UHGV virus genome: UHGV-0147584
DNA: 24,897 bases
Direction: 5' to 3' (one strand)
From: a virus
The position numbers and the translations under genes were made by a program. Shown here piece after piece: positions 1 through 23,256 of this stretch; positions within the stretch are counted from its first letter, which is position 1; each line of letters starts with the position of its first letter. A model generated the notes under the pieces. It saw nothing but the letters and a program-made list of their open reading frames with translations. It was not told the DNA's origin and ran no database searches.

Positions 1-16
1 ATGGCAGAATTATTTA

Positions 17-60
17 GATAAAAATAATCCCGCCTAATTACAAAGTATTAAGCCGGATTT
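17..60 (-). terminator. possible weak intrinsic terminator downstream of the J-like fibre gene
   Basis: Imperfect hairpin (aatcc/ggatt arms, 26-59) followed on the minus strand by AUUUUUAUC; lies just 3-prime of the J-like stop at 78-80. Confidence 0.3.
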
Positions 61-77
61 ATTATTAAAATTAAATT

Positions 78-3000
78 TTAAGAAACAGGAATACCAGTAG
101 TGGCTTTTTTAGTTACCATTACCGTTAAATCACTGATCCATGTGCTAGGCGTCCAGTTATTGATTGCGCTTGATTGCACTTCAAAGGTCAAGGTCACAGC
201 ACCCTTACCCGCTGGCATATCAATAACACCTGAGTAAAGACCAGTATTACCGCCATACGCCCTATTATACAACTCTGACCCATTCTTACGAACAATAAGG
301 CGACAGGTGTCGTAAAACGTATTATTGTTCGACCCTTCACGCGCTCGCAATCCACCAAAACTAACAGCCGGAATAACGATTTGACGATCGAACTTGTGAT
401 CATCTTCAACGCGAACAGTGACCGTACCCTGTGGATAACCAGCATAACCATTATCAACGTTAACATCACGATGCGGGAACTTACGTCCAATCACCTTAAC
501 GAAATCACCCTTAACCTGAGTAGCTTCAAGCATACCCTTAATAACACAGCTAGAGTTAATCGTGACGTTGTTCAGAGTACCAGAATCGGCAGTGATATTA
601 CCTTTAACGGTTGCATTCATGAACGTAGCGGACCCGTTCTTGTTGATATGCCATCCGGTCGATCCGTTCCAGTTGGAAGACTGGATATAGTTACCGATTT
701 TAGCGTTATCAATTGCACCGTTTACGATCTTCGCGTTAGTGATTGCCCCGTCCTGAATCTTCGCGCTGTTAATTGCAGCATTGCCGATTTTAGCCGTGGT
801 AATCGCCGCATCATTAATCTGGGCTGTACCAATTGCAGCATTACGAATCATCGCATTATCGAGATAAACCTTGTTACCTTCGATACCAAACGGGCATACT
901 TCCGATCCGTTCTGTGGAGCTACCGCGATTTTATCAGCATTAAAGATGATTCTCGTCGGTTGCGCCGGATCGTTGGTTGCGCTCATGTGAATACCAGCCA
1001 CGCGACCATCTGCATTAACTGCCAGATTATATTTGCTGTTAATGGTTCCTTTCAAAGCATCGATTTTTACATCTGCTTCCTGATTCACGCCAGCAATCTT
1101 GCCATCCATTTCTACCCGAACTTGATCAATCTTGCTTGCGCTTGCTGCCTCACTGGTAGCAATTGCTTGTTTCAGGGTAGTAGCAGATGCGCTGACTTCG
1201 GATTTAATATCGCCTTTCAGTTCAGCTTTAACCTGATCAATCTTAGTGGAGCTAGCTTGCTCGCTGGTAGCAATCAGACTCTTTAAGGTATTGGCTGAGG
1301 CTTGGACCGTCTGCCCTGTTTCGGTAGTGATTTGCTTATGCATTGCATCAATTTTAGCATCGGCATTAGCGCCAGCTTGAGCAATAGCATCCGCGATAGT
1401 TTCATCTAAGCGGTCTTGTAAACCAATCAGGTCTTCCAGTGCTTCTTTGTCCTGATCGTCCCAGCTAATGGTAGATTTCATTTGCATGAAATACGGTTCA
1501 GACCAAACAGCATCATCCATACCGAAAATATCGTAGTGAGCACCACGGATATAATAATCACCGTCTGCCAAATCAAAGGAAGTATGGCTAACACTATTCG
1601 TGCTTACCGCCCTTGCATCGGAGAAAGTGTTATCGGTTGCATACTGGATGATTGACCCTGCATAGTCATGTTCTACGTCATCCGCCCAGCTAACAAACGC
1701 AGTATTAAAGCCACCACGCGCACTAAAACCTTTCATTGGCTTATGTTGTGGGTTGATAGCCACTAAACGCGCTGGGGCGCTCTCTGAGTTGTTATAGCCC
1801 TTAGCCGATACTTCTACCGTCAGTTGACGCGAAAGGCCGTTAAACTGGTTCATGTCAAGCGTATAAGTCCATGATTCAGGATCGCGGGTACGGTACTGAA
1901 TAGACTTACCAGCCTTGTTAGTCACCTTGATAATGTATGCTTCAAACAGGTCACTAAACTTGTTAGTTTCACCGTTGATCTCAACATCTAATTGTTGCTG
2001 GTTTTCCCATTCGATAATCAGATCATTACCTTCGAAAGTTCCTGGCGTGCTACCCTGATTTTTGATTCGAATAACCGGAGTCGGCAATTCATAGGTAACG
2101 GTAGGATTCTGGTTAACCAGTTCTACCCAATCGGATCGCGCGATGATACCGAAAGCACAAACTCGGTAATCGTAGGAACGATCTTTTGCCAGTGCATTGA
2201 CACTGAAAATTTGCTGTGAAGTCTGTCCCAGCTTAATCCAGTTAGGCGATCCGCTTACACGGTAATCAATCTGGAAACCATAACGGTTAAAATCTTCCGG
2301 TGCATCCCATGTCAAAGTAACGTTTTTACCGTAAATCGTCTCACCAGTTGCCTTAATCCTGAAATTAGTAGGCTTCTGTACTGTCATTGAATCCGGTAAA
2401 CCACTTGGTCGGTTATCTGGGTTAGCCGCATAGTTCAGGTCAGTATAAACCTGAGAATTATATTCTGTGGCGGTGATAGTCATCATCCCAGCAATACCAG
2501 AATCAATCGAGCGATCAATTGCAGTAATACGCCATAAGGAATTATTCAGCTTCAATTCATCATAGGTTACGCTGATAACGTCCCAAACTTCGGCAGTGAA
2601 TGCGTCAGTAGTCATAAAGCTGATAACCTGAGTGATACGAGATTTATTTCGCTCAATGCTCGCGAGTTTATCAATCTGATCTTTAGACTTAACAAAACGA
2701 TATTCTACATCCTTAGCAATAATTCGACCATCTGCGCGAACAGTAGCATCGTTTTCAGCATCAGCCGGATAACGTAGCATTTGCTCTGAATAGTCAATTG
2801 ATGGTTCTTGATACATCGCGTTAATGGTATTGAAATAACCGTTAGTGCCACCTGTTTTCAGTGATACTTTCCCCATCATAATATTGTCTTCATTGAATGT
2901 ATGCTTAACAATATCAGGAGCATCCAGTTTCAGCGTAATACGTCCAAAGGATTCGAACATCACCCCGCCGAAAGTCTGCATAAGATTAGTCAAGTTCTCT

Positions 3001-3854
3001 TTAAAGCTGGCGTTCGGATCACATGCACCGTTTGAATGTAGATCCATCTGGCGTACTTGTTTACGTACTTTCAGGAATGAATCAACGTTGATGTTTTCAA
3101 TTGGTACGGATAAGCCATATTTTTCATTTGTTAGGTAGTGGAAAATCTGATCCACGCCGTTAGTGCTAGCCTCAATAGCATTGGTTTCAAGGTTACGAAT
3201 CTTTAACCCGCAAACGTCTACTGCTACCTGGCTATTTGGCTGGAGAATATCAACCCCAGCAGCAAGAGATTTGTCATCACGACGTAACACAATACACATG
3301 GTCGCAATGCCGTTACCCTTGAAAGCGTCGGTCCAGTCTGAGCCTAAATGACGTTTTGCCAGCGACAAAGCGGTGTTAGGATTCTTGCCCGTGCGGAACT
3401 CGACTTCTAATACTTTACGATATTCTTCTTTAATGTTGCCCTTATCGAGAATACCATCACGGATCGTCATGTTCTTACCAACAAGAACATTTTTGTTATC
3501 GATAAACAGTGCTTTGTAATGGTCGATTTCACCCTCGGCTACAGAGAAGATTTGCACTAGCTTATTGTTTTCTTGCTTAGAAACTGCTTTGTAAACACAG
3601 TTTGTGCCAGTGCGGGTAGTACCGAAAACGACTGGTATCACCGCTTTCGGATCGTTTGATGTTCCTAGTGTCACCGCATTATCTGGGCTTTGTACTTTAG
3701 GTGTTTTTGGTGCGCCTACAGTGGAAGCGATCAAGGTCATTGCACCAGCAGCCATACCGATAGCGACTGCGGTCATAACAGAAAATGTTGCAGCAGCAGC
3801 CATCCCAGCAGACGCACCAGCAATAACCGCGCCTACTAATATTTCAAATCCCAT
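78..3854 (-). CDS. central tail fibre / host specificity protein (lambda gpJ-like)
   Basis: 1258-aa ORF. The C-terminal ~150 aa carry motifs I recognise from the lambda gpJ receptor-binding end (DDHxFDRQIV, VDMPAG.G.V.LTF, VMV.KK). Start ATG overlaps the upstream stop (TAATG). Stop TAA. Confidence 0.85.
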   Translation of the reverse strand: MGFEILVGAVIAGASAGMAAAATFSVMTAVAIGMAAGAMTLIASTVGAPKTPKVQSPDNAVTLGTSNDPKAVIPVVFGTTRTGTNCVYKAVSKQENNKLVQIFSVAEGEIDHYKALFIDNKNVLVGKNMTIRDGILDKGNIKEEYRKVLEVEFRTGKNPNTALSLAKRHLGSDWTDAFKGNGIATMCIVLRRDDKSLAAGVDILQPNSQVAVDVCGLKIRNLETNAIEASTNGVDQIFHYLTNEKYGLSVPIENINVDSFLKVRKQVRQMDLHSNGACDPNASFKENLTNLMQTFGGVMFESFGRITLKLDAPDIVKHTFNEDNIMMGKVSLKTGGTNGYFNTINAMYQEPSIDYSEQMLRYPADAENDATVRADGRIIAKDVEYRFVKSKDQIDKLASIERNKSRITQVISFMTTDAFTAEVWDVISVTYDELKLNNSLWRITAIDRSIDSGIAGMMTITATEYNSQVYTDLNYAANPDNRPSGLPDSMTVQKPTNFRIKATGETIYGKNVTLTWDAPEDFNRYGFQIDYRVSGSPNWIKLGQTSQQIFSVNALAKDRSYDYRVCAFGIIARSDWVELVNQNPTVTYELPTPVIRIKNQGSTPGTFEGNDLIIEWENQQQLDVEINGETNKFSDLFEAYIIKVTNKAGKSIQYRTRDPESWTYTLDMNQFNGLSRQLTVEVSAKGYNNSESAPARLVAINPQHKPMKGFSARGGFNTAFVSWADDVEHDYAGSIIQYATDNTFSDARAVSTNSVSHTSFDLADGDYYIRGAHYDIFGMDDAVWSEPYFMQMKSTISWDDQDKEALEDLIGLQDRLDETIADAIAQAGANADAKIDAMHKQITTETGQTVQASANTLKSLIATSEQASSTKIDQVKAELKGDIKSEVSASATTLKQAIATSEAASASKIDQVRVEMDGKIAGVNQEADVKIDALKGTINSKYNLAVNADGRVAGIHMSATNDPAQPTRIIFNADKIAVAPQNGSEVCPFGIEGNKVYLDNAMIRNAAIGTAQINDAAITTAKIGNAAINSAKIQDGAITNAKIVNGAIDNAKIGNYIQSSNWNGSTGWHINKNGSATFMNATVKGNITADSGTLNNVTINSSCVIKGMLEATQVKGDFVKVIGRKFPHRDVNVDNGYAGYPQGTVTVRVEDDHKFDRQIVIPAVSFGGLRAREGSNNNTFYDTCRLIVRKNGSELYNRAYGGNTGLYSGVIDMPAGKGAVTLTFEVQSSAINNWTPSTWISDLTVMVTKKATTGIPVS
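690..865 (-). repeat. about six tandem 30-bp coding repeats inside the J-like gene
   Basis: Visible 30-nt periodicity (e.g. gtcctgaatcttcgcgctgttaattgcagc / atcattaatctgggctgtaccaattgcagc) encoding a 10-aa repeat NAAINSAKIQ / DGAITNAKIV / NGAIDNAKIG. Confidence 0.7.
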
Positions 3855-4273
3855 TATTCACCCCCGAATCTATAAACTTGTTCATAGTCAATGTCTGAAA
3901 CAGGAATGGTCATCCAGATACCATCTTCTTCAACGAGGCCATAACCGGAATAATGAGGAACTACGGAATAATAATTACGGTTTCCTAATTTGTGGGCTGT
4001 GACCAGTAAGTCGCCGTCCTGTAAATCATCAGTGACTAATTTGAAATGTTTCTTAATTGGTTGAAGGATATTTGAATACCCGCTTAATTCTTTGCAGATT
4101 TTCAAACCTTCTTCTTTAGTTGAATATTTTTTATAAAGAGAATTATATAGGTCAGTACCAGCGAGAATATCGATGATCTTACATGCAATGAGATTGCAAT
4201 CATTCTCGCCTTGAACGAACTCCTGACCTATTAAAGAATTGATGTAATCGGTGATAAGCCTAGTTTTTAGCAT
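3854..4273 (-). CDS. tail-tip protein, NlpC/P60-like (lambda gpK position)
   Basis: ORF-track frame 3854..4429, but its 5-prime part overlaps the upstream gene. An internal ATG at 4271-4273 is preceded by GGAGGT at good spacing. A Cys-containing motif ENDCNLIACKII resembles the NlpC/P60 catalytic region. Stop TAA. Confidence 0.55.
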   Translation of the reverse strand: MLKTRLITDYINSLIGQEFVQGENDCNLIACKIIDILAGTDLYNSLYKKYSTKEEGLKICKELSGYSNILQPIKKHFKLVTDDLQDGDLLVTAHKLGNRNYYSVVPHYSGYGLVEEDGIWMTIPVSDIDYEQVYRFGGE

Positions 4274-4319
4274 GTTGAATACCTCCATGCTGTTATTTAC
4301 TAGGCTTAGGGAGAAGGGA

Positions 4320-4973
4320 TTATTTCTTCGATGAATGCCACTTGCTTTCGCTATTCCACTTCCCGGCACGGGAGAAGAATAGATCGTTCTCGTTTCCAAC
4401 ATAGGATCGGTGGATACCATCGGAGGCATGACTACGGGCGTTTTTATCTAGAACTTCCCAGATACTATTAAGCTGAAATTCTGATTCGTTTTTACACTCA
4501 TCATCTTCATGTTCGATGTTAATCCCGATGGAATCGACTACCCCACGGAAAACAGGGTAAGTGGTTTCAACCTTGCCCGTGTTGGGATTCAGGAAAACCA
4601 TCTCGATTTTCACATCAGATTTATCGAATTGCTTGTTACGAATGAGAGTAATGTATTCTTCGCGAACGTTAGAAACAGTTACGTTGATCCCGTTGTTGTT
4701 GATCTCCTTCTCTTCGGTATTCGATGAGATTTGAAGAAAGTCACCCGTTGCGAGATATGTAAAACCGTTATAGTCCAAATCGAAATACCCATCTGTAAGC
4801 CGTAGAACGTCCCCTGACGCGGTAATCACTTCGATAATGTGAAACATCGATCCAGTGGAAAAAAGTTGCGGTAGAGTCAATCTAGACACATTCTGACCTG
4901 TCTGGTCGTTGTATACCTCGATGAAGTCCAGATTAGTGCATAGTTTGCTGAATGATTCCTGAATAGTTGCCAT
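4320..4973 (-). CDS. minor tail protein (lambda gpL position)
   Basis: 217-aa ORF between the M-like and K-like genes; start ATG overlaps the upstream stop (TAATG). Assignment is by position and size only. Confidence 0.5.
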   Translation of the reverse strand: MATIQESFSKLCTNLDFIEVYNDQTGQNVSRLTLPQLFSTGSMFHIIEVITASGDVLRLTDGYFDLDYNGFTYLATGDFLQISSNTEEKEINNNGINVTVSNVREEYITLIRNKQFDKSDVKIEMVFLNPNTGKVETTYPVFRGVVDSIGINIEHEDDECKNESEFQLNSIWEVLDKNARSHASDGIHRSYVGNENDLFFSRAGKWNSESKWHSSKK

Positions 4974-5533
4974 TATACATTCTCCACTAATTCAAATTTC
5001 ATCTTGCCAATCTGGGCGATCTTCCAATCGATATTTTCAGTTTTGAGAACAAATTCACCTTCTACGTTTTGATACTTGATCACCTCACCCGCCAGGACGT
5101 TCTGACGCAAGTTAGGGAAGAGTTTCATTTCACCACCTGATTTCACGTCTTCGGTGATCGTGTAGATTTTCTTGTGGTTCTCAAACTGGATGATAGTTCC
5201 CGCTTTCAGTGTTCCGGTGAAGTTGGAGAGTCTTACCTTACGCCCACCGCGAGCAGTACCAGCAGCAGCCGTAACCATCTGGCGTACATCACCTGTATAT
5301 TTTGAAAAGTAAGACAGTGGCACACTAAAAGGACGACCAAAAAGGTGACGTGCTACAAATTCTTTTACTTCGTTAATATCCTGAGCCATGAAATTAGCTG
5401 TAAATTCTGCTTCATAAAAATGAATGCCAGTAAAGCGACGCTGGAACTTACCAGAAATAGATTGCGCCTTAAAGAAAGGCTGTTTTGATTTAAGAGTAAA
5501 ATCTGTGATTTTAATATTCTTGGATTTGAACAT
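4973..5533 (-). CDS. minor tail / distal tail protein (gpM position)
   Basis: ORF frame is open to 5569 (GTG). The ATG at 5531-5533 is the only candidate with an SD-like GGGGG 8 nt upstream; alternative starts are ATG 5546-5548 or GTG 5567-5569. Stop TAA. Confidence 0.5.
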   Translation of the reverse strand: MFKSKNIKITDFTLKSKQPFFKAQSISGKFQRRFTGIHFYEAEFTANFMAQDINEVKEFVARHLFGRPFSVPLSYFSKYTGDVRQMVTAAAGTARGGRKVRLSNFTGTLKAGTIIQFENHKKIYTITEDVKSGGEMKLFPNLRQNVLAGEVIKYQNVEGEFVLKTENIDWKIAQIGKMKFELVENV

Positions 5534-5536
5534 AGA

Positions 5537-5582
5537 AAAAGCCCCCATAGTTTTATGATTATTTATCACTATGAGGGCTTTT
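5537..5582 (-). promoter_or_regulatory. long intercistronic hairpin between tape measure and the next gene
   Basis: Arms aaaagcccccatag (5537-5550) and ctatgagggctttt (5569-5582), 13 of 14 bp paired, 18-nt loop. Begins 3 nt after the TMP stop; one arm contains the GGGGG SD candidate of the downstream gene. Confidence 0.55.
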
Positions 5583-5584
5583 AA

Positions 5585-7939
5585 TTACATCTTACGGCGC
5601 TGTGCGTCTTCTACCGCCTGAGCAACTAACTTAGCATGACGTTTGATAGCATCCATAACCATCTTGTCTGAGCTATTAACGTTGCCGTTAATGTTCAAAG
5701 GCGCATTAACTTCAATCGGCTGAGAGTTACCACCGCCTGATTTTTGAGCAGATAAGAAGTCTTTCAAATCACCGTTAGTACGCTGATCAACTACTCGTTC
5801 ACCCTTATCAAGCAACCATGTACCCTCACGAGGGATATTATCGATACCATCATGAGCCATACCGCTAACGTTAGTCGATTTGATGTTTGCGATGTTCCCC
5901 ATGTTCTGAGAAACAGCCAATGCAGCAGCCGCGATTTTTTGACCTGTGGTTACGTTGGTCGGATCGTTCCATGCATCGGTAGCAGCCGTCCACATGTTCA
6001 CCGTCGCTTGTCCAATGGAGAATGCCTTATGAGCATTGAAAGCCATCTGCATAGCCTTTGTGTTTTCCTGCCCGAAGAGAGTCATTGCAGCAGCAAAACC
6101 GCCGTACATATCATCGGCTATTGACTGACGAGCATCAGCGTATTTCTTCTCAATTGCAGCCATCCGTTTTTGATGGTTTTCATTGAGTTTTTCTAATGCT
6201 TCCATCCGTTTAGCCGGAACGGTGATCCCATCAATCTTGAGTTTATCGGTTTTATAATCTTGTTCGGCTTCCGATTTCTCTTTATCGATTGCATTAAATT
6301 TAGCAAACGGATTATTTGAGTCTTGATAATCAAATCCACTGGTTAATTGATTGGATTTAAAACCATCCATTCCCTGTAAATGACTATCAATCTGAGAATA
6401 GTTTTGCTCGGTATCATTCACACGACGCATATATTCTTCGTAGGAGATAGCTTTACCATCAAGTAACCGTTTATGGCTTTCTAGCTCGTTGTCCCTGATT
6501 TGTTGCAAAACTGTTAAGGCATTCAGAGCATCAATCGGATCAGCACCCAACATCATTTTATAGATGTTTTCTGCGTTCTGATCTAACAGTTGCTGACGTT
6601 TAGCGGCTGCGTCTTGCTGAGAGATTAAGCCCATATCTAAAGCAGTGTCTAAATCTTTCAAGCTGGCTTCTAACTGCTTGTTTTGAGAAGCAATAGACGC
6701 GGCTGTCTGTCCTTGCAATTTAACATCAAGAGCATTCAGTCGCTTGATTGCATCCTCGCGTGCTTTCTGTGCTTTTTCTGCGGCTTCCTTAGCCTTTTTA
6801 GCTGCCTCTTCCGCTTTCTTCTTGGCTTCTTCTTGTTCTTTTTTCGATGGTCCGGTGACGCCTCCACCTTGACCCGTTGGGGTAAATCCGGTATCCGATT
6901 TATTTCCAGTGATAGTAATTACCGGATCACCGTTTTTATCACGGGTAACGCCTTCACTATCCACCCAACGATCAGGATAATTTGGTTTATTGTTGAAGCT
7001 GGCTTGTCCACCCGCTAGACCAGTAGAACTATAACCATGCTTGTTAATAAAACCACCGTTAGCCATAGCCATATTCTGGCGAGCTTTTTCAAACCTTTCA
7101 TTAAAAGTCTTTAATGCGTTGAATAAAGCGGTCTTTTCCCAATCTTTATCAAACCAGTTGTAAAGATTATTCATCCCTTCAACAACTGGATTTAGTGCAT
7201 TTGCAGCCATACCCTTTAAGTTATCGGTAAGGGTATCCATATTTTTAGAGAATTTATTATATTCTTCGGCTGTGTCATTGGTGATTTTAACAGTTTGCTG
7301 ATTAATGGCGTTTACAGCTTCCTGATAAGATCCGTATTTCTGCAATTCATCAGCCATATGACTTGAATCACTGGCTAACGATTCCATCATAAACTTAACA
7401 TCAGCGATAGACGCACCAGCCTTGCGCATATCATAGAAGACCTTGATCGCCGCTTTCATCCCGCCTTGTGGATCGTTCATAAACTCGGCATAATCTTTAA
7501 TCTTCAAACCTACACTTTCTAGGTCGTCTTCAATACCGCCACCGTTACGCCATGCATCAGCCAGCTTATCTAAGGTGTCTTTGTTAATATCACCAAATTT
7601 CTCAACGGTTAAGCCAGTACCGGAGAATTGCTTCTCTAATTTCTGGAGTGTTTCGACGGTTAAACCAGTTGCTTTTGAAACTTCGCTGTATTCCTTTACA
7701 TAATCACCGATGGCATTTGCAGCAGAAATAGCGCCAGCAGCCAAACCAACAAAACCACCAGCAGCCAAAGCAAGCGATCCACCAGTTCCGCGAAGGGTTC
7801 CACTTAAACTAGATAAACCACCAGACAAATCAAGATTCATTGCCCTTTCTGAAAGGTTATCAAGCATCTCTATCGCCTGATTGGTACTTCTCCTTAGACC
7901 GTCATTATCTCCTTCTATTGTTACTATATGTCTTGTCAT
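5585..7939 (-). CDS. tail tape measure protein
   Basis: 784-aa ORF directly downstream of the G/GT chaperone pair. Coiled-coil-like Ala/Lys/Glu-rich stretches (KKEQEEAKKKAEEAAKKAKEAAEKAQKARE) and Gly-rich N-terminal hydrophobic segments. Stop TAA. Confidence 0.8.
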   Translation of the reverse strand: MTRHIVTIEGDNDGLRRSTNQAIEMLDNLSERAMNLDLSGGLSSLSGTLRGTGGSLALAAGGFVGLAAGAISAANAIGDYVKEYSEVSKATGLTVETLQKLEKQFSGTGLTVEKFGDINKDTLDKLADAWRNGGGIEDDLESVGLKIKDYAEFMNDPQGGMKAAIKVFYDMRKAGASIADVKFMMESLASDSSHMADELQKYGSYQEAVNAINQQTVKITNDTAEEYNKFSKNMDTLTDNLKGMAANALNPVVEGMNNLYNWFDKDWEKTALFNALKTFNERFEKARQNMAMANGGFINKHGYSSTGLAGGQASFNNKPNYPDRWVDSEGVTRDKNGDPVITITGNKSDTGFTPTGQGGGVTGPSKKEQEEAKKKAEEAAKKAKEAAEKAQKAREDAIKRLNALDVKLQGQTAASIASQNKQLEASLKDLDTALDMGLISQQDAAAKRQQLLDQNAENIYKMMLGADPIDALNALTVLQQIRDNELESHKRLLDGKAISYEEYMRRVNDTEQNYSQIDSHLQGMDGFKSNQLTSGFDYQDSNNPFAKFNAIDKEKSEAEQDYKTDKLKIDGITVPAKRMEALEKLNENHQKRMAAIEKKYADARQSIADDMYGGFAAAMTLFGQENTKAMQMAFNAHKAFSIGQATVNMWTAATDAWNDPTNVTTGQKIAAAALAVSQNMGNIANIKSTNVSGMAHDGIDNIPREGTWLLDKGERVVDQRTNGDLKDFLSAQKSGGGNSQPIEVNAPLNINGNVNSSDKMVMDAIKRHAKLVAQAVEDAQRRKM

Positions 7940-8676: not shown

Positions 8677-9183
8677 TTAAGAGATTTTCAAAGTCTGCTT
8701 AGTGCCAGTCTTCTTAATGTTATTGAGGAAAGCTGCCGGAGGATTGCTTAACCAATAGTAATGAAAACCACTTTGCATACTGTTATAAGGAACAGTGACA
8801 GCAGCACCACCCAAATTAACGGTTATATTCCCCGCTCTACCGTTCTGGAGATATACAGCCATAGTAGGAGTACCACCATTGAATTGACCAACGATAACGC
8901 CAATCAGACGGCCTACGCCCACGTTTTCGGGGTTCTCCATAGTTCCTTTACTGCGCATATCAGTTACAGGATAGTTTGAAGCAGTTACACCCCAATTATT
9001 ACCCAATGACGTAGACCACGCAGCAGTAGCTACAACCGTATCCATACCACGACCAGCCATTGCCGACATATTACGCGGAGCCGGAACTTTTAAAGCTGTT
9101 AATGCTTCTTTCATCCATCGCTTACCCGTCACTGATACAGCCGATGACCCGATCCAGCCGGGAACTTTAACGACATTTGCCAT
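8677..9183 (-). CDS. hypothetical virion-associated protein (Gly/Ala/Thr-rich)
   Basis: 168-aa ORF, ATG 9181-9183 preceded by GGAG; sits between a terminator and the G chaperone gene. No family recognised. Confidence 0.45.
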   Translation of the reverse strand: MANVVKVPGWIGSSAVSVTGKRWMKEALTALKVPAPRNMSAMAGRGMDTVVATAAWSTSLGNNWGVTASNYPVTDMRSKGTMENPENVGVGRLIGVIVGQFNGGTPTMAVYLQNGRAGNITVNLGGAAVTVPYNSMQSGFHYYWLSNPPAAFLNNIKKTGTKQTLKIS

Positions 9184-9357: not shown

Positions 9358-9834
9358 TCATCCGGCAGTGTTGAAGATTTCCTGTTTCAGCGGAGCACCA
9401 TCAACAGCAAAGGTAAATTCTTTAGTTACCACTTCTTCATCGCCACCGTTCATAGCAACTTTAGAAATAAAGCCGTTGAAAGCGGTGCGAATACCAGTCT
9501 GTTTTGCTGCGTCAACATAGTATTCAATTTTAATCTGAATACGGGTTCCATCTTCGGCAGCCTTAATAAGACGCTCATGCACGGTATCCCCGGGAATATA
9601 ATTAACGGTCAGAGTCAGATCAGGAACGTTCAGTTTACCTACCAGCTTGCGGTTATACTGAGAAGAGAAGGATTTAACTTCTACAGTACCGCGCTCGATA
9701 CCAGTTTCAGGGAAACCAGCACACTCTTTAATTTCTTCATAGCTTTCATGATCGAGAGCGGTGTTAGTGGTATCGGCGTGATAGAACATACTTACCAGAC
9801 CACCAGTAAAAATATCTTTGAATTGTTGAGACAT
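9358..9834 (-). CDS. putative tail tube-fold protein (candidate major tail protein)
   Basis: 158-aa ORF with SD AAGGGG. A segment (GKLNVPDLTLTVNYIPGD...LIKAAEDGT...IEY) is paralogous to the 277-aa protein at 13552-14385. Ends in TGA followed by an in-frame extension and terminator. Confidence 0.5.
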   Translation of the reverse strand: MSQQFKDIFTGGLVSMFYHADTTNTALDHESYEEIKECAGFPETGIERGTVEVKSFSSQYNRKLVGKLNVPDLTLTVNYIPGDTVHERLIKAAEDGTRIQIKIEYYVDAAKQTGIRTAFNGFISKVAMNGGDEEVVTKEFTFAVDGAPLKQEIFNTAG

Positions 9835-9890: not shown

Positions 9891-12800
9891 TTATTTAGTT
9901 GCTTTCAGTTCGGCAATCTCTTTATGTAATGCTTCGATCTGCGCTTTATATTTGGCGTCCATTTCCTGCATAGCTTTGATGATTAAAGCATTGACAGCAG
10001 AGTTAGAAATAGTCTTGATTGCTTCTGGATGTTCTGGATCTTCGGTAGATTGAATACCTACTGCTTCCGGCAATACTTTTTCCAGATCCTGAGCAATAAT
10101 ACCTACTTCGCGTTTAATTACCGTGTCATCAGAAAGAGATTTAACTTTATCGTAGGTGTATACTTTCAGGGAGTTTACTTTCTCTAATGCACCGTCCTGT
10201 AATTCTTCCTTGTTAATTTTCAGACGAGAGTCAGAGCGAATGTAAACATCGTTAAAGCTACCGTTACGACCTGCCGTCATGTCACCGGATGCGTTAAAGT
10301 CAAAGACGGCATCATGAACATGGAGACGAACAAGAGCGTTACCGATAGTACCGCTAGGAACGTGTACACCCATTGCGGCGATATGATATTTACCTTGATG
10401 GGTTGCTTTCCAGATGTTATGAGCGGAATCGGTTGATTGCTGGCAGTCGACCTGAATACCGGAAGCACGATCACGCCAGCTAGCCCAACTACCACCAGCA
10501 ACGCTACCACGAATAAGACCATTACCGCCACCGGATACAGTGCCCGTTTCAAGGTGAATCATCTTACCGCCGAATTTCCAGACTTCGGCTTGTTTCTCAC
10601 CGCGCATACGCATAACACCAGCATCATCGCAGTACAACAGACCCAACTCTAAGCCGTTTGGATCTCTAAACCATAAATGCTTGTTACCAGTGCGCTTAAA
10701 CTCAATATCAGCACCATTCAGGGTGATATTGCCTCCAGTGTGGATTGCTTTAGGCTTAACAGTACCGTTAATAGCAAACTCGATTAATTCAGTACCAGGA
10801 CCGCCAGCACGTTGGGTATACCAGTGCCAACCGCTTTCATCAGCACATTCAAACACTTGTTTACGAGCATCAGCGCCCCATGCACGAATATTAAACGTAG
10901 AAGTTGCAGTACCTTTACCCCAGCGAATTTGTCCAGCAGCTTCTAAATCACCGAAGAATTTAGTTTTAATCGCACCAGTTGCTAAAGTACGTTCAGTGGT
11001 GAAGTGTGCACCTTTGCTATCGTCAAGCTGTAAGATATTATCACGAGCGTTATTGCTATCGCCCCAATGGTTAAACCGGAAGTAGTCGCGAGAATTTAAT
11101 CGACCAGCATCAAAGGTTAACATTCCTTTACCGACGTAAATATCACCAGCAAATCGAGCAGCACGGCTATCTCGTTCGAGAACTAATGCACCCTCGTTAC
11201 CATCACCACCTAAAGTAACTTTACCAGTCGTCAAATCGTAAATGAATGGTCGGTTGCCGTTCCAGCCACCAAATTTATCATTTTCGGCAGTTGAAAGAAG
11301 ATAAACTTTACCACCATCATTACGCCAGAATGCACCGTAGTTACCGTAAATCATACGGAATGCATCACTGTTAGCAGCTACATATTGTCCGTTTGAGTAA
11401 ACAATTTTTGTTTTACCAGTGGATAATGAAACTTGACCGTTCTCATCCAGTCTTACAGAGTTATTACCTTCCGTTAATTCATTTACTAACTGTACAGTGT
11501 TAGTAGTACCATCACCATAACCTAGATAACCCTGACGACGATTAGCACCAGAACGATAATCAAAGAATTCGATATAGTTACTTTGCCCGTCGCGGCGTTC
11601 CATTCTAATAGCGTTATTACCCTTAACAAAAAGGCGGTTTACAGTAACACCATTAAAATCAATTTTTAATTGATCCGCTGTATCAGTAACACCAGTAGCT
11701 AAACGATAGACACTACCTTCAACAACTTCATGCCAAATTGTTTCGGCTGATTTGCTACGGAATTTACGAAGATATTTTTTATTTGTATCAGTTGAGTTAT
11801 TCAGACTGATAATATCATATGTTCCTTGACCGTTATTATCGAACATCAACGTTCCGGCTTTGTTTTCGGTGTTGAACATCGTAATAACACGAGCATCAGT
11901 AACACCAACAGAAGGTTTAACGAGAGTTAATTCAGGAACATCATGTACTGTTAACGAAACATCACTAGTTTTACCATATTCGACAATAACGTTATCGGTA
12001 TAACGACCGTAGTTTACGTAAATGTCGTAGTTATCACCGGAAGTATTAACCGCAAATACTTGATGGACATTCAAAGAATTTCGACGATAAGCAGCAATAC
12101 TAACGCCTTTCGGGTTATTGTTACCGGAACGGATAACAATTTCTACAAAATCAACCTGATCATAGGAGTTAACGTTATAGCCGTTACCACCGAAGATACG
12201 AAGCATTACCATTCGACCATTCTGTGGGATCGTGGCGGTTGCAATCTTGAAGTATCCACGAGAAGCATCACCAGACGGAACAGACATTTTCACGTTCTTG
12301 ATGAACATCTGGTCAACTGCGGCCTTGCTATACACACCCAATTCATCAGGAGTCGGCTTATCACCTTCATGGTACATGCGATAGCTGAATCTCTTGTTAC
12401 CGTCCTTATCAAAGCCATAGGTTTTAACCTGAGATGAGCTAGACCCATAATGGAACTCAAAGCCGCGACCGTGTGCTTTACCGCCAGAATGAGGAATGTT
12501 AAGGATTAAGTTACCCCAGCCTTCGGCATTGTTCGGACGAAACGCACCAAAATAATCAAGGTTACGAGCACCAGCATCATCAAAATAGTTAGCGGTCTTG
12601 CTTAACAGATAGCCATGATGATAAGTGTTGGTATTCTTCTTGATGTAAAGAGCATCGTTGCTACCTTCAATACCATCAATTCGACGGTTAGCGGCTGCAA
12701 TCGCTGCATCTGCATCGGTCTTGTTTTTGTCTACCTTCGCGTTAATGGCGGTATGATTGCTATTAACAGTGTTGGTTAAGTTGGTGATCTTCGTATCAGC

Positions 12801-13478
12801 GTCTTTCTTGTTATTCGCTACCGTAGTTTCAATGGCTGATTTGTTAGCCGCAACGGTACTCGTTAAGCTGGAGATCTTAGAATCAGCATCAGACTTGTTA
12901 GCTGTAACGGTTTTGGTCATATTGCTAACATTGGTGTTGGTGGCATCAACACGGCTATTGATCGCGGTGTTATTGTCATTAACCGTAGTGGTTAAAGCTG
13001 AGATTTTATTGTCCGCGTCTCGTTTGTTATTCGCTACGGTAGTTTCAATAGCTGATTTGTTTGCCGCAACAGTGTTAGTTAAAGTGGTATGTTTGCTGTC
13101 AGCGTCGGTTTTATTTGCCGTAACTGTCTGGGTTAAGTTACTAACATTGGTGTTAGTAGCATCAATGCGCTTATTGGTTGCTGTATCTTTCGTGTTAATA
13201 GTGTTATTCAGTTCAGATTTAGCGGTAGCCAGAGCGTTAGCAGCTTCGGTTTTATTTGCCGCAATAACACGATCCGTGTTGGTTTTGTTTGTGTCTACTT
13301 TAGTGTTAAGTTCAGCGTGTTTTTCTGGGGAAACGCTGATTTGAACTACTGCGTTATTTTTGTCTTTCGTGTAAATTACGTGGTCGGCAAGGTTAATAGC
13401 TACCTCACCCTGTGCCAGTTGTTCCGGCGTTGGCTTTTTACCAGCCGTCTGTGTGCGTTTAAATTGGATTGATTGCAT
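9891..13478 (-). CDS. side / L-shaped tail fibre with C-terminal intramolecular chaperone (peptidase S74-like) domain
   Basis: 1195-aa ORF. Conserved fibre N-terminus (MQSIQFKRTQTAGKKPTPEQLAQGEVAINLADHVIYTKD), tandem shaft repeats, and a C-terminal ~114 aa beginning RSDSRLK that resembles the autocleaving chaperone of phage T5 pb1 / K1F endosialidase. Stop TAA. Confidence 0.8.
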   Translation of the reverse strand: MQSIQFKRTQTAGKKPTPEQLAQGEVAINLADHVIYTKDKNNAVVQISVSPEKHAELNTKVDTNKTNTDRVIAANKTEAANALATAKSELNNTINTKDTATNKRIDATNTNVSNLTQTVTANKTDADSKHTTLTNTVAANKSAIETTVANNKRDADNKISALTTTVNDNNTAINSRVDATNTNVSNMTKTVTANKSDADSKISSLTSTVAANKSAIETTVANNKKDADTKITNLTNTVNSNHTAINAKVDKNKTDADAAIAAANRRIDGIEGSNDALYIKKNTNTYHHGYLLSKTANYFDDAGARNLDYFGAFRPNNAEGWGNLILNIPHSGGKAHGRGFEFHYGSSSSQVKTYGFDKDGNKRFSYRMYHEGDKPTPDELGVYSKAAVDQMFIKNVKMSVPSGDASRGYFKIATATIPQNGRMVMLRIFGGNGYNVNSYDQVDFVEIVIRSGNNNPKGVSIAAYRRNSLNVHQVFAVNTSGDNYDIYVNYGRYTDNVIVEYGKTSDVSLTVHDVPELTLVKPSVGVTDARVITMFNTENKAGTLMFDNNGQGTYDIISLNNSTDTNKKYLRKFRSKSAETIWHEVVEGSVYRLATGVTDTADQLKIDFNGVTVNRLFVKGNNAIRMERRDGQSNYIEFFDYRSGANRRQGYLGYGDGTTNTVQLVNELTEGNNSVRLDENGQVSLSTGKTKIVYSNGQYVAANSDAFRMIYGNYGAFWRNDGGKVYLLSTAENDKFGGWNGNRPFIYDLTTGKVTLGGDGNEGALVLERDSRAARFAGDIYVGKGMLTFDAGRLNSRDYFRFNHWGDSNNARDNILQLDDSKGAHFTTERTLATGAIKTKFFGDLEAAGQIRWGKGTATSTFNIRAWGADARKQVFECADESGWHWYTQRAGGPGTELIEFAINGTVKPKAIHTGGNITLNGADIEFKRTGNKHLWFRDPNGLELGLLYCDDAGVMRMRGEKQAEVWKFGGKMIHLETGTVSGGGNGLIRGSVAGGSWASWRDRASGIQVDCQQSTDSAHNIWKATHQGKYHIAAMGVHVPSGTIGNALVRLHVHDAVFDFNASGDMTAGRNGSFNDVYIRSDSRLKINKEELQDGALEKVNSLKVYTYDKVKSLSDDTVIKREVGIIAQDLEKVLPEAVGIQSTEDPEHPEAIKTISNSAVNALIIKAMQEMDAKYKAQIEALHKEIAELKATK
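12735..13170 (-). repeat. two tandem ~216-bp (72-aa) repeats in the fibre shaft
   Basis: Protein repeat RIDATNTNVSNLTQTVTANKTDADSKHTTLTNTVAANKSAIETTVANNKRDADNKISALTTTV versus RVDATNTNVSNMTKTVTANKSDADSKISSLTSTVAANKSAIETTVANNKKDADTKITNLTNTV; DNA copies are near-identical over long stretches. Confidence 0.8.
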
Positions 13479-13551: not shown

Positions 13552-14385
13552 TCAGTATTCCCCGAAGTCGATTCGGTCTGTCTTAGCAACCGCATTAATT
13601 TCGGCTGGCGTAGGCTTCTCATTTGTTGTATAGACTTTAATCCATTCAGATTTTCCGTTGTCCTGAATATTTCGTACCCGCAAACGTGGAGCACCGGAAG
13701 TATTACAAGTTAATTGCCATGCGCCATGCTCATTAGCTTGAAGATGAATTAACGATGTATCAGCACCATAAGGATTAGTGCTAGCCGTTCCTTTGTAGGT
13801 TACGAAGCGGTTTCCTGTCAGAGATTCACTATCAATAGGACCACTGAAAGGATTTACACCAGCGCCCAGACCAAAATCACCCTGACGTAAGATACGGCCT
13901 TCGGTAGCAATACCCCTTGCAAGAATCCCGCCATCTGGTTCTAGTTTGAATTCCATAGTTACAGCTTTGTTATCACCACCACGAGTTTTATGGCTAGTGA
14001 CATAAGCATCATAGATGACATAGTAACCAGTGTTAGCAGCACTATAGCCAGAGTTAACGACATAGAACATTCTAAAGCGTAAAGGTGTTTTATCCTCTAC
14101 GGCTTTCATCAACATTGCTTGGTGTTCATCGTCAAGAACACGGTTTACTGTGAGCGTAGTCGGTTCAAGTTTGCGATAGCCAGCCAGCTTACCAGTCGCA
14201 TCATGATCATACTCTTCGTAAGTCTCGATCTCGGTTGATTCTGTTAGCGTAGGAAAGGCTGCGATGTTCTCCATACCACTAAAGCTAGGATCGAAAAAGT
14301 CGACCTGATTGTCTAGCTGGTTAGAGATCGACACTTCAACATGCGATCCCGTAAAAATATCTAAGTTATCATGCGTAATATTCAT
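13552..14385 (-). CDS. tube-fold tail protein (candidate major tail protein, lambda gpV position)
   Basis: 277-aa ORF with SD AAGGGGTAAT. About 34% identity over an ungapped 41-residue stretch with the 158-aa protein (TLTVN..D....L.KA.ED.T......Y). Ends TGA, then 3 sense codons and TAA. Confidence 0.5.
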   Translation of the reverse strand: MNITHDNLDIFTGSHVEVSISNQLDNQVDFFDPSFSGMENIAAFPTLTESTEIETYEEYDHDATGKLAGYRKLEPTTLTVNRVLDDEHQAMLMKAVEDKTPLRFRMFYVVNSGYSAANTGYYVIYDAYVTSHKTRGGDNKAVTMEFKLEPDGGILARGIATEGRILRQGDFGLGAGVNPFSGPIDSESLTGNRFVTYKGTASTNPYGADTSLIHLQANEHGAWQLTCNTSGAPRLRVRNIQDNGKSEWIKVYTTNEKPTPAEINAVAKTDRIDFGEY

Positions 14386-15241: not shown

Positions 15242-17242
15242 TCATTCAGCGGAGATGTGAAGAACTTTCAGAGCTTCCGGCTGTGCTACAACGTAGTCCA
15301 AATCTACAAAGATACGAGGCACTACCGCACCACGATCCCTATATGTAGTTAGATCCATGTCGAGTTCCAGACCTCCCCACTCACCGATAGTAATACCGGA
15401 GAAGTCACCCAGAACGATGTGGTCTGCCGGGATAACGCCAGAAGTAACTACTTCGTAACCAGCCAGTTTGCCGTTTTCGATGATATAACCGGAAACGCCG
15501 TTATCTTTCAGGGTAGATTCCAGTTCAGCAGCAGTTGCACCGCTCATCGCAAACTTGATCGCCTGAGCAGGAACGCCAGCGTCGGTCAGTGCTGCAATTT
15601 CTTTCAGGAAGTCTTTGTAAGAGAAAGCAGCTTTCTTGGTAACGCGGCTAGCGTCTACCAGTTGCTTAACCAGACCAGCCGGACCACGGTCGTTAGCTTT
15701 ATCAGACAGAATCAGTTGTTCCAGTTTGATGCGAACAGCTTTGTTAATGTGATCAGTGATCAGGGAAGCGATGCCGGGTACGGTTTTCAGCGACTGACGG
15801 CTGATCGGGTTGCCACCAGCAAAAGTTTTCGGAGACAGTTTCACGTTCGCAAATTCAGCTTTGCTTTCCGGTGCAGCACCGTTTTCATCAACGAAGCCGA
15901 AAGCGTCAACGCTGGATTTAGTCATTTTTGGAATAGCGGTCGGGGAGTTCAAGCCACTGTAAACAGTCACACCCAGACGACCCAGAACAGATTCCGGCAT
16001 CAGCATTTCGATGTAGGATTCAGTCATCAGTTTTTCGTCAGTGATAGCGGTCAGGTCGGCTTTGGTGTTACCAGCAGAAGCAGCACGCATAGCAGCAGCC
16101 GGAACGAATACAGAGCCACCGCGAGCAGCACGACCACGCTGCATTGCAGCACCAGCAGCCATAGCGGAATATTCAGCTTCGTTAGCACCCAGAGCAGCAC
16201 CATCTACCAGAGAGCGAATTACGTTGTTCAGGTCAAAAGTTTTTTCCATTTTAGAGTCCTTAATTTGTTCGTTATTACGTTGAGCATTGACGAGATTATT
16301 TAGTGCCTTAGTGCGGAATGCTTCCGGCGTCATGTCTTTAATTGCCAATGCGCGTTTCAATTCTTCGTCGTCAATATTTAGTTCCCGCGCGATTGCTCGG
16401 ATTTCTTCTTCGTCTTCTTCGGAACGTTCAGCCACTTCTTCGGTTTTTTCTTCTTCAACCGGAGCGGCTTCACGTTCTTCTTTTACTTCTTCTTCCCGAA
16501 CAGTTGAACTATCATCATCAACACTTTCAGGATGTTTAGCGTCTTTTCCGTCTTCGAGATTTTCATCTTCTTTATTCTCTTCAACTTGGCGCTCTTGAGT
16601 TTCTTCAACTTTCGGTTCTTTATTTTCTTCTACCGGAGTTTCTTCAACCTGAGCGGGTTCTTGTTCTTCTTTGATTTCTTCGATTTGTTCTTTAGTCATA
16701 TCGCGTTTAGCCCCCAAATTAACTGTGATAGTATTTAGAGAGCGATTTAAACCGACCGAATCATCGGCAGGGACCGTGACCCACGAAATTTCGTGAGGAA
16801 TCCATTTAGAAACAATGAGTTGCGATTTAGCGTAGTCGATGTGATATTCTTTAATGTCATAACCGACAGAAATTTTTTCCATCGTACCTTCAATGACTTT
16901 ATTACGAATATCATTAGCCAAAGTCCCATGCTTAGAGAATTTAACCAGAGCACGGCCTACGTTATCCGCATCGATTCGAGCGTTACAAACGACACCAATG
17001 TGATTATCGAAATTATGATTGAACAGCAACGGAGCGTTATTATTCAGACGAGACAGATCAACCGCTTCCGGTGTATGTACCAGAATTTCATCTAATACCA
17101 CCATTTCTTGATTTTGCTCATCCCAAAATTGGCGCTGATAAGGCTGTGTACTTGAGAAAGCAATTTCAAACTCGTATTGATCGTTATGCCCTTCGTTAAT
17201 AACTCCACCGTAACCGTTAAGATCGCGGCGAAATTTAAGCAT
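15242..17242 (-). CDS. prohead protease - acidic scaffold - major capsid protein (HK97 fold) encoded as one ORF
   Basis: 666 aa. N-terminal ~180 aa carry HK97-family prohead protease signatures (LLFNHNFDNHIG; KISVGY...HEISWVTVPADDSVG). Residues ~180-330 are an extremely acidic low-complexity linker. The C-terminal ~330 aa look like an HK97-fold capsid protein. SD AAGGTGA. Stop TGA. Confidence 0.75.
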   Translation of the reverse strand: MLKFRRDLNGYGGVINEGHNDQYEFEIAFSSTQPYQRQFWDEQNQEMVVLDEILVHTPEAVDLSRLNNNAPLLFNHNFDNHIGVVCNARIDADNVGRALVKFSKHGTLANDIRNKVIEGTMEKISVGYDIKEYHIDYAKSQLIVSKWIPHEISWVTVPADDSVGLNRSLNTITVNLGAKRDMTKEQIEEIKEEQEPAQVEETPVEENKEPKVEETQERQVEENKEDENLEDGKDAKHPESVDDDSSTVREEEVKEEREAAPVEEEKTEEVAERSEEDEEEIRAIARELNIDDEELKRALAIKDMTPEAFRTKALNNLVNAQRNNEQIKDSKMEKTFDLNNVIRSLVDGAALGANEAEYSAMAAGAAMQRGRAARGGSVFVPAAAMRAASAGNTKADLTAITDEKLMTESYIEMLMPESVLGRLGVTVYSGLNSPTAIPKMTKSSVDAFGFVDENGAAPESKAEFANVKLSPKTFAGGNPISRQSLKTVPGIASLITDHINKAVRIKLEQLILSDKANDRGPAGLVKQLVDASRVTKKAAFSYKDFLKEIAALTDAGVPAQAIKFAMSGATAAELESTLKDNGVSGYIIENGKLAGYEVVTSGVIPADHIVLGDFSGITIGEWGGLELDMDLTTYRDRGAVVPRIFVDLDYVVAQPEALKVLHISAE

Positions 17243-22428: not shown

Positions 22429-23256
22429 TTACAGTCCGAAGACTTCCAGAGAGCCAGCATTCTGACGAATCAGCAAAGCAGTGTTATTAATGATTGCTCG
22501 TGAGTTGTTCGGCTGTGGCAATTTCAAAGTTGCGGCCTTTTCTTCTTCAAGCAATCCGAGTTTTACGAGATGCGGGATAGCATCAGCAGTGAACTCGATC
22601 TGACCGTGTGCCGACATACGAGCGAACATATAGCCAGGAGGAAGCAGATCATAGCCTTTAGGCTTACCAGAAGCATCCAGACGACGCTCAAGAACACCAG
22701 CAGCACATAAACCTTTCAGAATCATTTGTACCGTCGTAGAGCCTCGTTTTTCGCCTAATAAGCGGCTAAGACTGTGTGTGTCGATAGCTTTACGAACATG
22801 CAATTCAACCAGTTGTTTCTTTTCTTGAATCAGTTGTTCGTTTGCGGCTTCCAATTCCATTGCCTCACGAATCCAGTCGAGCTTAGTCATGTTTGCGTAA
22901 GGGTTGATTTGCTGAGAACGCAGTTTTTCATTTTCTTCTTTCAGTCGCTTCCATTCCTGAATAACAACCATTCGACGCTTAACATCGTAACCAGTGACAA
23001 GAGTCAGCGTCATTTCTTCGTCTAAGTGATATTCGGTTTGTTCACGTCCACACTGATCAAGATAGGTGCGCTCAAAACTGAGCACATCTAATTCCAGAGC
23101 ATCGAGCATGGATTTAATATCACGTTTAACGTTTTTGTGTTCTTTTCCGGTAAATTCAGCGATCTGACGAGAAGACATGGTCAGCGGTTTGGTGTTATCA
23201 ACAACCAGAGACACGGAAGCAGTTTTAGCAGTATTCATAACGGTAACAGTATTCAT
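22429..23256 (-). CDS. phage regulatory protein Rha / antirepressor
   Basis: N-terminal SSRQIAEFTGKEHKNVKRDIKSML...TLVTGYDVKRRMVVIQEWKRL matches the Rha-family signature as recalled; coiled-coil middle and a C-terminal domain of unknown function. SD AAGGGGAA. Stop TAA. Confidence 0.75.
   Translation of the reverse strand: MNTVTVMNTAKTASVSLVVDNTKPLTMSSRQIAEFTGKEHKNVKRDIKSMLDALELDVLSFERTYLDQCGREQTEYHLDEEMTLTLVTGYDVKRRMVVIQEWKRLKEENEKLRSQQINPYANMTKLDWIREAMELEAANEQLIQEKKQLVELHVRKAIDTHSLSRLLGEKRGSTTVQMILKGLCAAGVLERRLDASGKPKGYDLLPPGYMFARMSAHGQIEFTADAIPHLVKLGLLEEEKAATLKLPQPNNSRAIINNTALLIRQNAGSLEVFGL

Follow-up and report, generated by a model that had tools for sequence, protein, structure and literature searches.

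The 24,897-nucleotide stretch of viral DNA analysed here (UHGV virus genome UHGV-0147584; hereafter the window) contains, on the minus strand at 78..3854 (stop codon included), a single open reading frame (ORF) of 1258 amino acids (aa), as given by the ORF list and its translation. We consider, at a probability of roughly 0.8, that the product of this J-like, megatron-like ORF, a trimer, forms the tail-tip hub and central fibre of an Escherichia coli siphovirus prophage and is built as a mosaic of known modules. From the N-terminus, the protein most probably consists of a gpI-like module (aa 1-96), a hub of the T5 pb3/lambda gpJ fold, three FN3 domains, a helical stalk, a straight fibre lengthened by repeats, and a gpJ-type receptor-binding domain (RBD). 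Overall, it is a mosaic of a megatron-style hub and a lambda-type fibre tip in an E. coli prophage. An earlier reading of the letters alone (the original prediction) had proposed an I-like, membrane-interacting fusion and an outer-membrane protein as receptor. This interpretation was largely right, although it overstated the N-terminus as "unusual" and was too specific in naming LamB.

Judging from hydropathy, conservation and profile matches, the first 47 residues (3714..3854, minus strand) make up two Ala/Gly-rich hydrophobic helices. All Kyte-Doolittle 19-aa windows above 1.6 lie within residues 1-48, with none elsewhere in the protein. Residues 1-45 include 14 Ala, 6 Gly and one charged residue (E4), in agreement with the earlier description of this stretch as nearly all Ala, Gly and hydrophobic, and residues 1-47 contain 13 small-xxx-small motifs. 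The following segment, aa 48-96 (3567..3713, minus strand), comprises a plug-like linker (APKTPKVQSPDN) and β-strands (VIPVVFGTTRTG...) and is homologous to lambda gpI 156-212 by BLASTP and hhalign. BLASTP aligned residues 48-92 with gpI 156-208 (E 8e-6), and hhalign profile-profile comparison of the J-like N-terminus with gpI gave a probability of 93.7% (E 1.9e-7). With a 94-sequence profile, positions 62-96 were matched to gpI 178-212 at a probability of 95.1% (E 2.9e-8). A search of all PDB sequences with a profile built from 33 such N-termini gave matches to T5 pb3 262-313 (profile positions 71-122; E 6e-8), lambda gpI 112-212 with both hydrophobic helices included (positions 7-96; E 2.7e-5), residues 2-138 of RcGTA g15, chain 6tba_8A (positions 2-121; E 1.7e-4), and residues 103-191 of the gpI-like protein of F2 pyocin (positions 11-88; E 3e-4). 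The features of the C-terminal half of gpI, i.e. two hydrophobic helices, a plug and the strand motif LPVLYGEMRVG, are all present in the J-like N-terminus. At the sequence level, homology is thereby supported between aa 1-47 and both the H1/H2 helices of gpI and the RcGTA megatron's iris/penetration domain, and the aa 1-96 module is probably the structural equivalent of the C-terminal half of gpI.

The earlier proposal of a fused gpI-like, membrane-interacting module is thus backed by the BLASTP, hhalign and profile matches to gpI as far as the C-terminal half of that protein is concerned, whereas the ubiquitin-like N-domain of gpI is absent from the J-like protein and from every ORF in the window. 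Pfam PF06805 (Lambda_tail_I) did not match the J-like N-terminus even at E ≤10, while the lambda gpI control scored 1.1e-28. Since this model spans only gpI residues 14-97, the non-match is not evidence against homology to gpI. Searches of the N-terminal 120 aa against Pfam, NCBIfam and PHROGs returned nothing meaningful. The absence of a separate I-like gene, also proposed earlier, was confirmed: the upstream 139-aa gene ends on the J-like start codon, and a gpI-family hidden Markov model (HMM) run against all 215 six-frame ORFs of the window found only the J-like ORF, at aa 12-103 and only via HMM positions 125-220.

In an AlphaFold2 (AF2) model of aa 1-830 (mean predicted local distance difference test score, pLDDT, 80.9), residues 1-62 are unstructured (pLDDT about 25, <50); for aa 1-47, a low pLDDT is what is expected of a segment depending on a trimer or a membrane. 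The model confidently shows residues 71-96 as strands packing against the hub (pLDDT about 89-90). In lambda, the gpI strands augment the hub in trans (PMC10721106); those of the J-like protein are modelled likewise, but within their own chain. The 94-sequence N-terminal profile did not recover the N-terminus of lambda J in hhalign, and a filter-free hmmsearch placed lambda J 20-50 on profile positions 95-121 with only 3.6 bits. The matches are collinear, with positions 7-96 corresponding to gpI, 95-121 weakly to lambda J 20-50, and a window at 226-256 to lambda J 265-295 (hhalign), an order suggestive of a lambda I/J boundary at about aa 96/97 of the J-like protein. Some of these results weigh against our reading of the N-terminus: the homology signals, with E 1e-4 to 1e-8 over 35-100 columns, are of moderate strength and fall partly on a compositionally biased segment, the alignment across the junction with lambda J 20-50 is very weak, and AF2 offers no confident structure for aa 1-62.

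A word-indexed homologue search with aa 1-500 detected only 8 close relatives, and the wider family became visible only in an exhaustive HMMER search with the N-terminal profile against 1.84 billion cluster representatives. This search yielded 524 clusters (50% identity) at E ≤1e-3 with the same N-terminal layout, mostly long J-like proteins. Of the best 150 matches, 94 reach or exceed 600 aa in length and 133 show a hydrophobic window scoring 1.6 or more in the first 100 aa; the strand motif P[VILA][VILA][YF]G is present in 120, its median position being 76. The fused arrangement is also found in the solved structures of RcGTA g15 and of the megatron of roseophage R4C (PMC7296036, PMC10276861). 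With 524 clusters and these solved proteins sharing the layout, the N-terminus is odd only beside the split I + J arrangement of lambda. One of the HMMER matches, P0241 (352 aa, probably truncated), appears to have an extra N-terminal domain of ~90 aa preceding the hydrophobic segment, the plug and the start of a J-like body, with a Pfam FNIII-A_GpJ match at 260-313. Inspection of its sequence suggests that P0241 may be a complete I-J fusion including the ubiquitin-like domain; Pfam Lambda_tail_I gave no match to it.

Could the hydrophobic segment be an untranslated stretch or an artefact of a miscalled start, the true protein beginning 3' of it? In favour of such a reading, the segment contains four more in-frame ATGs (codons 18, 27, 34 and 39), but none of them has a Shine-Dalgarno-like site. 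The first ATG is the sole in-frame start within the first 120 codons that has one (GGGGGTGA, 3858..3865, minus strand, 5' of the ATG), and it is translationally coupled to the upstream gene, whose stop codon it overlaps (TAATG). The PGAP annotation of E. coli ETEC4090 gives identical boundaries, start codon included, under the product name "phage tail tip protein", and the first 100 codons differ from those of the ETEC4090 copy by 15 synonymous and 7 non-synonymous codon differences. Moreover, the hydrophobic segment is kept as protein in homologues of 45-50% identity and in the 133 distant matches counted above. Its conservation extends to all 8 close homologues, the most divergent at 45% identity; on this ground a miscalled start is excluded, and the reading as a whole is close to refuted. 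A start codon downstream of the segment had been named at the outset as an observation that would overturn the prediction; the coordinates and N-terminal peptide quoted there proved exact, and the strand, not given there, is minus. A scan for terminators 3' of the gene (window positions 1-400) found none.

The body of the protein begins with the domains of the baseplate-hub/J fold (aa 97-485; 2400..3566, minus strand), assigned by Foldseek with the AF2 model of aa 1-830. The best matches were the hub protein of DT57C (5e-35), T5 pb3 (1e-34) and, after JBD30, lambda gpJ (6e-25), with Chi and T1 also among the matches. The model thus shows a baseplate hub/J-like fold (T5 pb3, lambda gpJ HDII-HDIV) followed by FN3 domains. 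The Pfam match to Phage-tail_3 at 285-447 is weak (19.6 bits, below the 23-bit cut-off). Three FN3-like β-sandwich domains (aa 486-795; 1470..2399, minus strand; pLDDT 85-93) come next; they had many Foldseek matches to FN3 tandems and a weak match to Pfam fn3. They are followed by an α-helical stalk (aa 796-931; 1062..1469, minus strand), modelled as helices from aa 800. The stalk contains an imperfect 37-aa tandem duplication at aa ~855-928 (TLKSLIATSEQASSTKIDQVKAELKGDI... / TLKQAIATSEAASASKIDQVRVEMDGKI...), with a period-37 identity of 0.46.

The stalk leads into the central straight fibre (aa 932-1004; 843..1061, minus strand), a segment common to lambda J. Pfam PF09327 (Phage_Tail_Tip) matched residues 932-1016 (4.6e-18; 65.8 bits, cut-off 22), and BLASTP aligned residues 949-1004 with lambda J 872-931. 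Between this segment and the RBD lies a block of five 10-aa repeats, [AG]AIxxA[KQ]I(x)2 (aa 1005-1057; 684..842, minus strand), with a period-10 identity of 0.58 (0 of 10000 shuffles as high). Clean units begin at residues 1006, 1016, 1026, 1036 and 1046, and a degenerate sixth is located at about 997 (997-1006), so that the roughly sixfold repeat noticed in the original prediction corresponds to five clean copies and one degenerate copy. The 53-aa block is an insertion relative to lambda J, appearing as a gap in the BLASTP alignment. Because relatives have 3 to 5 units, and because in the J homologue of Escherichia phage DCP80 these same five units lead into an unrelated domain at the C-terminus, the block behaves as a spacer setting fibre length, with the junction just after it acting as an exchange point for RBDs.

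The RBD occupies aa 1067-1258 (81..656, minus strand), as shown by Pfam, PDB and BLASTP matches. Pfam PF12421 (Ig_GpJ_C) matched residues 1124-1258 over profile positions 3-135 of 135 (1.8e-33; 115.9 bits, cut-off 26.2), phmmer against the PDB matched lambda gpJ (1.5e-34), and BLASTP aligned residues 949-1257 with lambda J at 32% identity (1e-35). The predicted alignment with the C-terminus of lambda gpJ therefore exists, and the domain, of ~190 aa, is longer than the ~150 aa first estimated. NCBIfam NF049904 (lambda_TipJ) was matched only by residues 1068-1257 and reached 204.5 bits against a cut-off of 1950 for the full-length protein; on these comparisons, the J-like protein as a whole is not an orthologue of lambda J.

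A gpJ-type RBD supports the prediction of an outer-membrane protein receptor, and an outer-membrane porin is a reasonable candidate. It had further been predicted that the receptor is LamB, as in lambda, and the RBD does share its fold and family with the RBD of lambda J. However, its best match among solved RBDs is that of A8 gpJ (PDB 9wca; 5.6e-54, 180 bits, 53% identity), while lambda J scored 120 bits at 42%, and its closest natural relatives are the J proteins of Stx-converting and VT1-Sakai prophages (52-54% identity). The segments that diverge from lambda or carry indels relative to it partly match A8, e.g. NNWTP. A8 gpJ is an engineered lambda J whose C-terminus comes from a naturally occurring E. 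coli phage variant, and it was shown experimentally to depend on OmpC, not LamB (PMC11338833), and gpJ-type domains are known to use LamB, OmpC or OmpF (PMC11338833, PMC10999833). LamB is thus an unlikely receptor, and OmpC is a better guess, yet still a guess at this level of identity. Two points count against relying on the RBD here: 53% identity is too low to assign a receptor to it, and host range need not depend solely or primarily on the RBD, given that genes for a T-even-type side fibre and a gp38-like adhesin are also present in the window.

The homology and architecture described above are results of this analysis; the functional steps that follow are extrapolated from lambda, T5 and RcGTA/R4C. 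In lambda, gpI 101-223 resides in the lumen of the tip, where it comprises the hydrophobic helices H1/H2, the plug and β-strands augmenting the gpJ sheets, and supports the C-terminus of gpH (PMC11101478, PMC10721106, PMC12617516). After LamB binding, the gpI helices are lost from the open tip and have been proposed to enter the outer membrane (PMC11101478, PMC12617516). Residues 1-46 of the megatron form an iris-like gate and are predicted to line a pore (PMC7296036, PMC10276861). The T5 plug, located immediately upstream of the conserved strand pair with its hairpin tip at 233-236, refolds and anchors in a nanodisc (PMC10038345). By analogy, we propose for aa 1-96 a gate-and-anchor role triggered through the fibre by porin binding. 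In the virion, three N-terminal modules would lie within the tip cone, keeping the channel closed and propping up the C-terminus of the tape measure. The RBD would then bind a trimeric porin, more probably OmpC-like than LamB, and the signal would twist the fibre, release the FN3 strings and let the hub domains swing open. The opening would let out the tape measure protein and perhaps the NlpC/P60 peptidase, followed by the DNA.

Whether the N-terminal helices really insert into the membrane is, by these analogies, an even bet; weighing against it, insertion of gpI or megatron helices has never been directly observed, even in lambda, and is a hypothesis in all the papers cited. The N-terminus might instead be only an internal plug or assembly element that holds the tape measure, the outer-membrane channel being formed by the tape measure alone. 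The luminal plug position is the one actually observed in lambda, RcGTA and R4C (PMC10721106, PMC7296036, PMC10276861), the Ur-lambda study ascribes the trans-envelope channel mainly to gpH* (PMC12617516), and the authors of the T5 study question whether siphophages in general have a pore-lining helix (PMC10038345). On the other hand, the segment is extremely hydrophobic, its about 45 aa leave room for two membrane spans and are rich in small-xxx-small motifs, and this hydrophobicity is retained across hundreds of divergent clusters that are otherwise poorly conserved in sequence. In addition, the lambda helices leave the open tip towards the membrane (PMC11101478), and the T5 equivalent is visibly anchored in the nanodisc (PMC10038345). 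A role confined to plugging is therefore regarded as possible but rather doubtful. It is far less probable that the segment serves the producing cell as a Sec signal peptide or an inner-membrane anchor, e.g. in membrane-located assembly or in superinfection exclusion. Any transmembrane predictor would flag so long a hydrophobic stretch at the N-terminus, but it has no basic n-region (E4 being the sole charge), no lipobox and no signal-peptidase motif, its 45 aa are twice the length of a signal peptide, and homologous segments have been resolved within assembled tail tips (PMC11101478, PMC7296036).

The window represents the structural module of a siphovirus-type prophage, with all genes on the minus strand. 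The listed gene order is terminase, portal, protease-capsid fusion, tube, T-even-type side fibre, second tube-like gene, gp38-like adhesin, chaperones, tape measure, distal tail protein, hub, DUF6950 protein and the J-like gene. Of 5426 complete E. coli genomes, 57 contain closely related DNA, in every case in the chromosome, and megablast of window positions 1-6000 against a phage collection gave no match. The nearest protein from a sequenced phage is that of DCP80 (38% identity over 94% of the length), followed by those of large Vibrio siphophages. The DCP80 homologue shares the hydrophobic N-terminus and the 10-aa repeats with the J-like protein, whereas its C-terminal domain is different. 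In GenBank, DCP80 (PQ671644.1) is placed in Straboviridae/Tevenvirinae/Gaprivervirus, yet it carries a siphovirus-type tape measure and J-like cluster, nearly all annotated as hypothetical; its taxonomic assignment looks wrong.

Directly upstream of the J-like gene, at 3854..4273 (minus strand) and in the position of lambda K and RcGTA g14, is the gene for the 139-aa DUF6950 protein. Its predicted structure has a papain-like NlpC/P60 fold with the catalytic Cys at a helix N-terminus; BLASTP against lambda K and a PDB sequence search revealed no similarity, the assignment coming from the predicted fold only. It is preceded by the genes, likewise on the minus strand, for i) a 217-aa hub protein (4320..4973; PF09931, 8.8e-6; phrog_2048 "tail protein", 1.6e-27) with the N-terminal attachment domain of phiJL001 gp84, the counterpart of lambda L and RcGTA g13, ii) the distal tail protein (4973..5569; phrog_1302 "distal tail protein", 3.1e-16), and iii) the tape measure protein (5585..7939; phrog_13674 "tape measure", 9.2e-71), whose C-terminus would rest on the plug as it does in lambda and T5 (PMC10721106, PMC10038345). 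The order distal tail protein, hub, NlpC/P60 peptidase, J-like protein is that of RcGTA g12-g15; it is also the M-L-K-(I)-J order of lambda with I merged into J.

Several other genes of the prophage are worth recording. A 1195-aa T-even-type long tail fibre (9891-13478, minus strand; phrog_1699, 1e-141) contains Gp34_trimer and a Peptidase_S74 intramolecular chaperone domain, and the gp38-like adhesin (8677-9183, minus strand; Gp38_N, 4e-15) is encoded by a separate gene; the prophage thus probably has side fibres with a receptor of their own besides the J-type tip. The side-fibre gene has a tail-tube-like gene on either side, the two being paralogues (13552-14385, minus strand, 277 aa, and 9358-9834, minus strand, 158 aa; 29% identity, E 3e-14), of which the second lies between the fibre and the gp38-like adhesin. 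A 666-aa ORF (15242-17242, minus strand) fuses a Peptidase_S78 prohead protease (aa 40-162) to the major capsid protein (Phage_capsid, aa 408-662). Upstream of the terminase region is a gene for a Rha/Ant-type regulatory protein (22429-23256, minus strand; Phage_pRha, 8.8e-14), consistent with a temperate lifestyle. In the related prophage of ETEC4090 (L004 1157-2836 and 2989-3342), small hypothetical genes, a gene for a metallohydrolase of the D-Ala-D-Ala carboxypeptidase family and one for a large serine-type "recombinase family protein" lie 3' of the tip gene. The metallohydrolase is probably an endolysin and the recombinase probably the integrase, marking the end of the prophage.

Compared with lambda gpI + gpJ (PDB 8IYK, 8K35, 8XCG), the J-like protein shares the straight-fibre segment and RBD (32% identity over 949-1257, 42% in the RBD), the hub fold of the body and, at aa ~7-96, the helices H1/H2, plug and β-strands of gpI 112-212; the cluster also has an NlpC/P60 gene directly upstream, with the hub and distal tail protein genes before it. 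In lambda, however, the I-like module is the separate gpI, with its ubiquitin-like N-domain (Pfam Lambda_tail_I), whereas here it is fused in frame to the hub without that domain. The ~850 residues preceding the fibre have no sequence similarity to lambda J except for the short hhalign match at 226-256, lambda J does not have the 53-aa repeat block before its RBD, and the upstream 139-aa peptidase is without the MPN/JAB half of gpK. In RcGTA g15 (PDB 6TBA, 6TEH) and the R4C megatron, as in the J-like protein, the hub carries at its N-terminus a fused, hydrophobic iris/penetration domain about 45 residues long, and RcGTA has in the same order a distal tail protein, a phiJL001 gp84-type hub, a small NlpC/P60 peptidase and a large tip protein. 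The remainder of the protein appears to differ, the megatrons bearing adhesin-like, peripheral and fibre-binding domains and the J-like protein FN3 domains, a stalk of helices and a fibre and RBD of the lambda type; no RcGTA chain was among the top 50 Foldseek matches for aa 1-830, and the host of RcGTA is alphaproteobacterial, not enterobacterial.

The pb3 proteins of T5 and DT57C (PDB 7ZHJ, 8HQZ) are the best fold match to aa 1-830 (E 5e-35), and T5 pb3 also has the strand pair IPVVYG...EGEID (pb3 262-313) directly after the element serving first as tube plug and later as outer-membrane anchor. In T5, the plug is a β-hairpin within one large hub protein that includes HDI, whereas the equivalent in the J-like protein is N-terminal and helical-hydrophobic and HDI resides on the separate 217-aa hub protein; T5 also uses a separate receptor-binding protein, pb5. 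A8 gpJ and the J proteins of the Stx and VT1-Sakai prophages have the closest RBDs (E about 1e-54 to 1e-57) but in other respects are typical J proteins of the lambda type, accompanied by a separate gpI.

The fused plug and hub arrangement is already known from other phage tails, and in this respect the finding is correct but fairly ordinary. An explicit statement of a sequence link between gpI and the megatron iris domain was not found in the searchable literature. The lack of an I gene in a lambda-like tail cluster does not mean that the function has been lost, since the N-terminus of the J-like protein can hold the plug and membrane module; such a module goes unannotated because Pfam Lambda_tail_I covers only the ubiquitin-like half of gpI. 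The assignment of the receptor matters for predicting host range, and the RBD looks OmpC-like rather than LamB-like in sequence. For phage engineering, the natural junction at about aa 1090-1100, past the 10-aa repeats, is a site at which RBDs have been swapped between unrelated tail bodies. Lambda gpI, the gpI-like proteins of F-pyocins, the iris domains of megatrons and the part of T5 pb3 that follows the plug form one sequence family, which supports a common gate-and-anchor step in DNA delivery by siphophages. We suggest, tentatively, that this is a natural single-chain I-J protein with a lambda-type RBD in a setting compatible with E. coli K-12, and that lambda I and J arose from one ancestral hub gene split inside a β-hairpin. 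If so, helices tethered to the hub would provide a tractable system for a direct test of outer-membrane insertion during DNA ejection.

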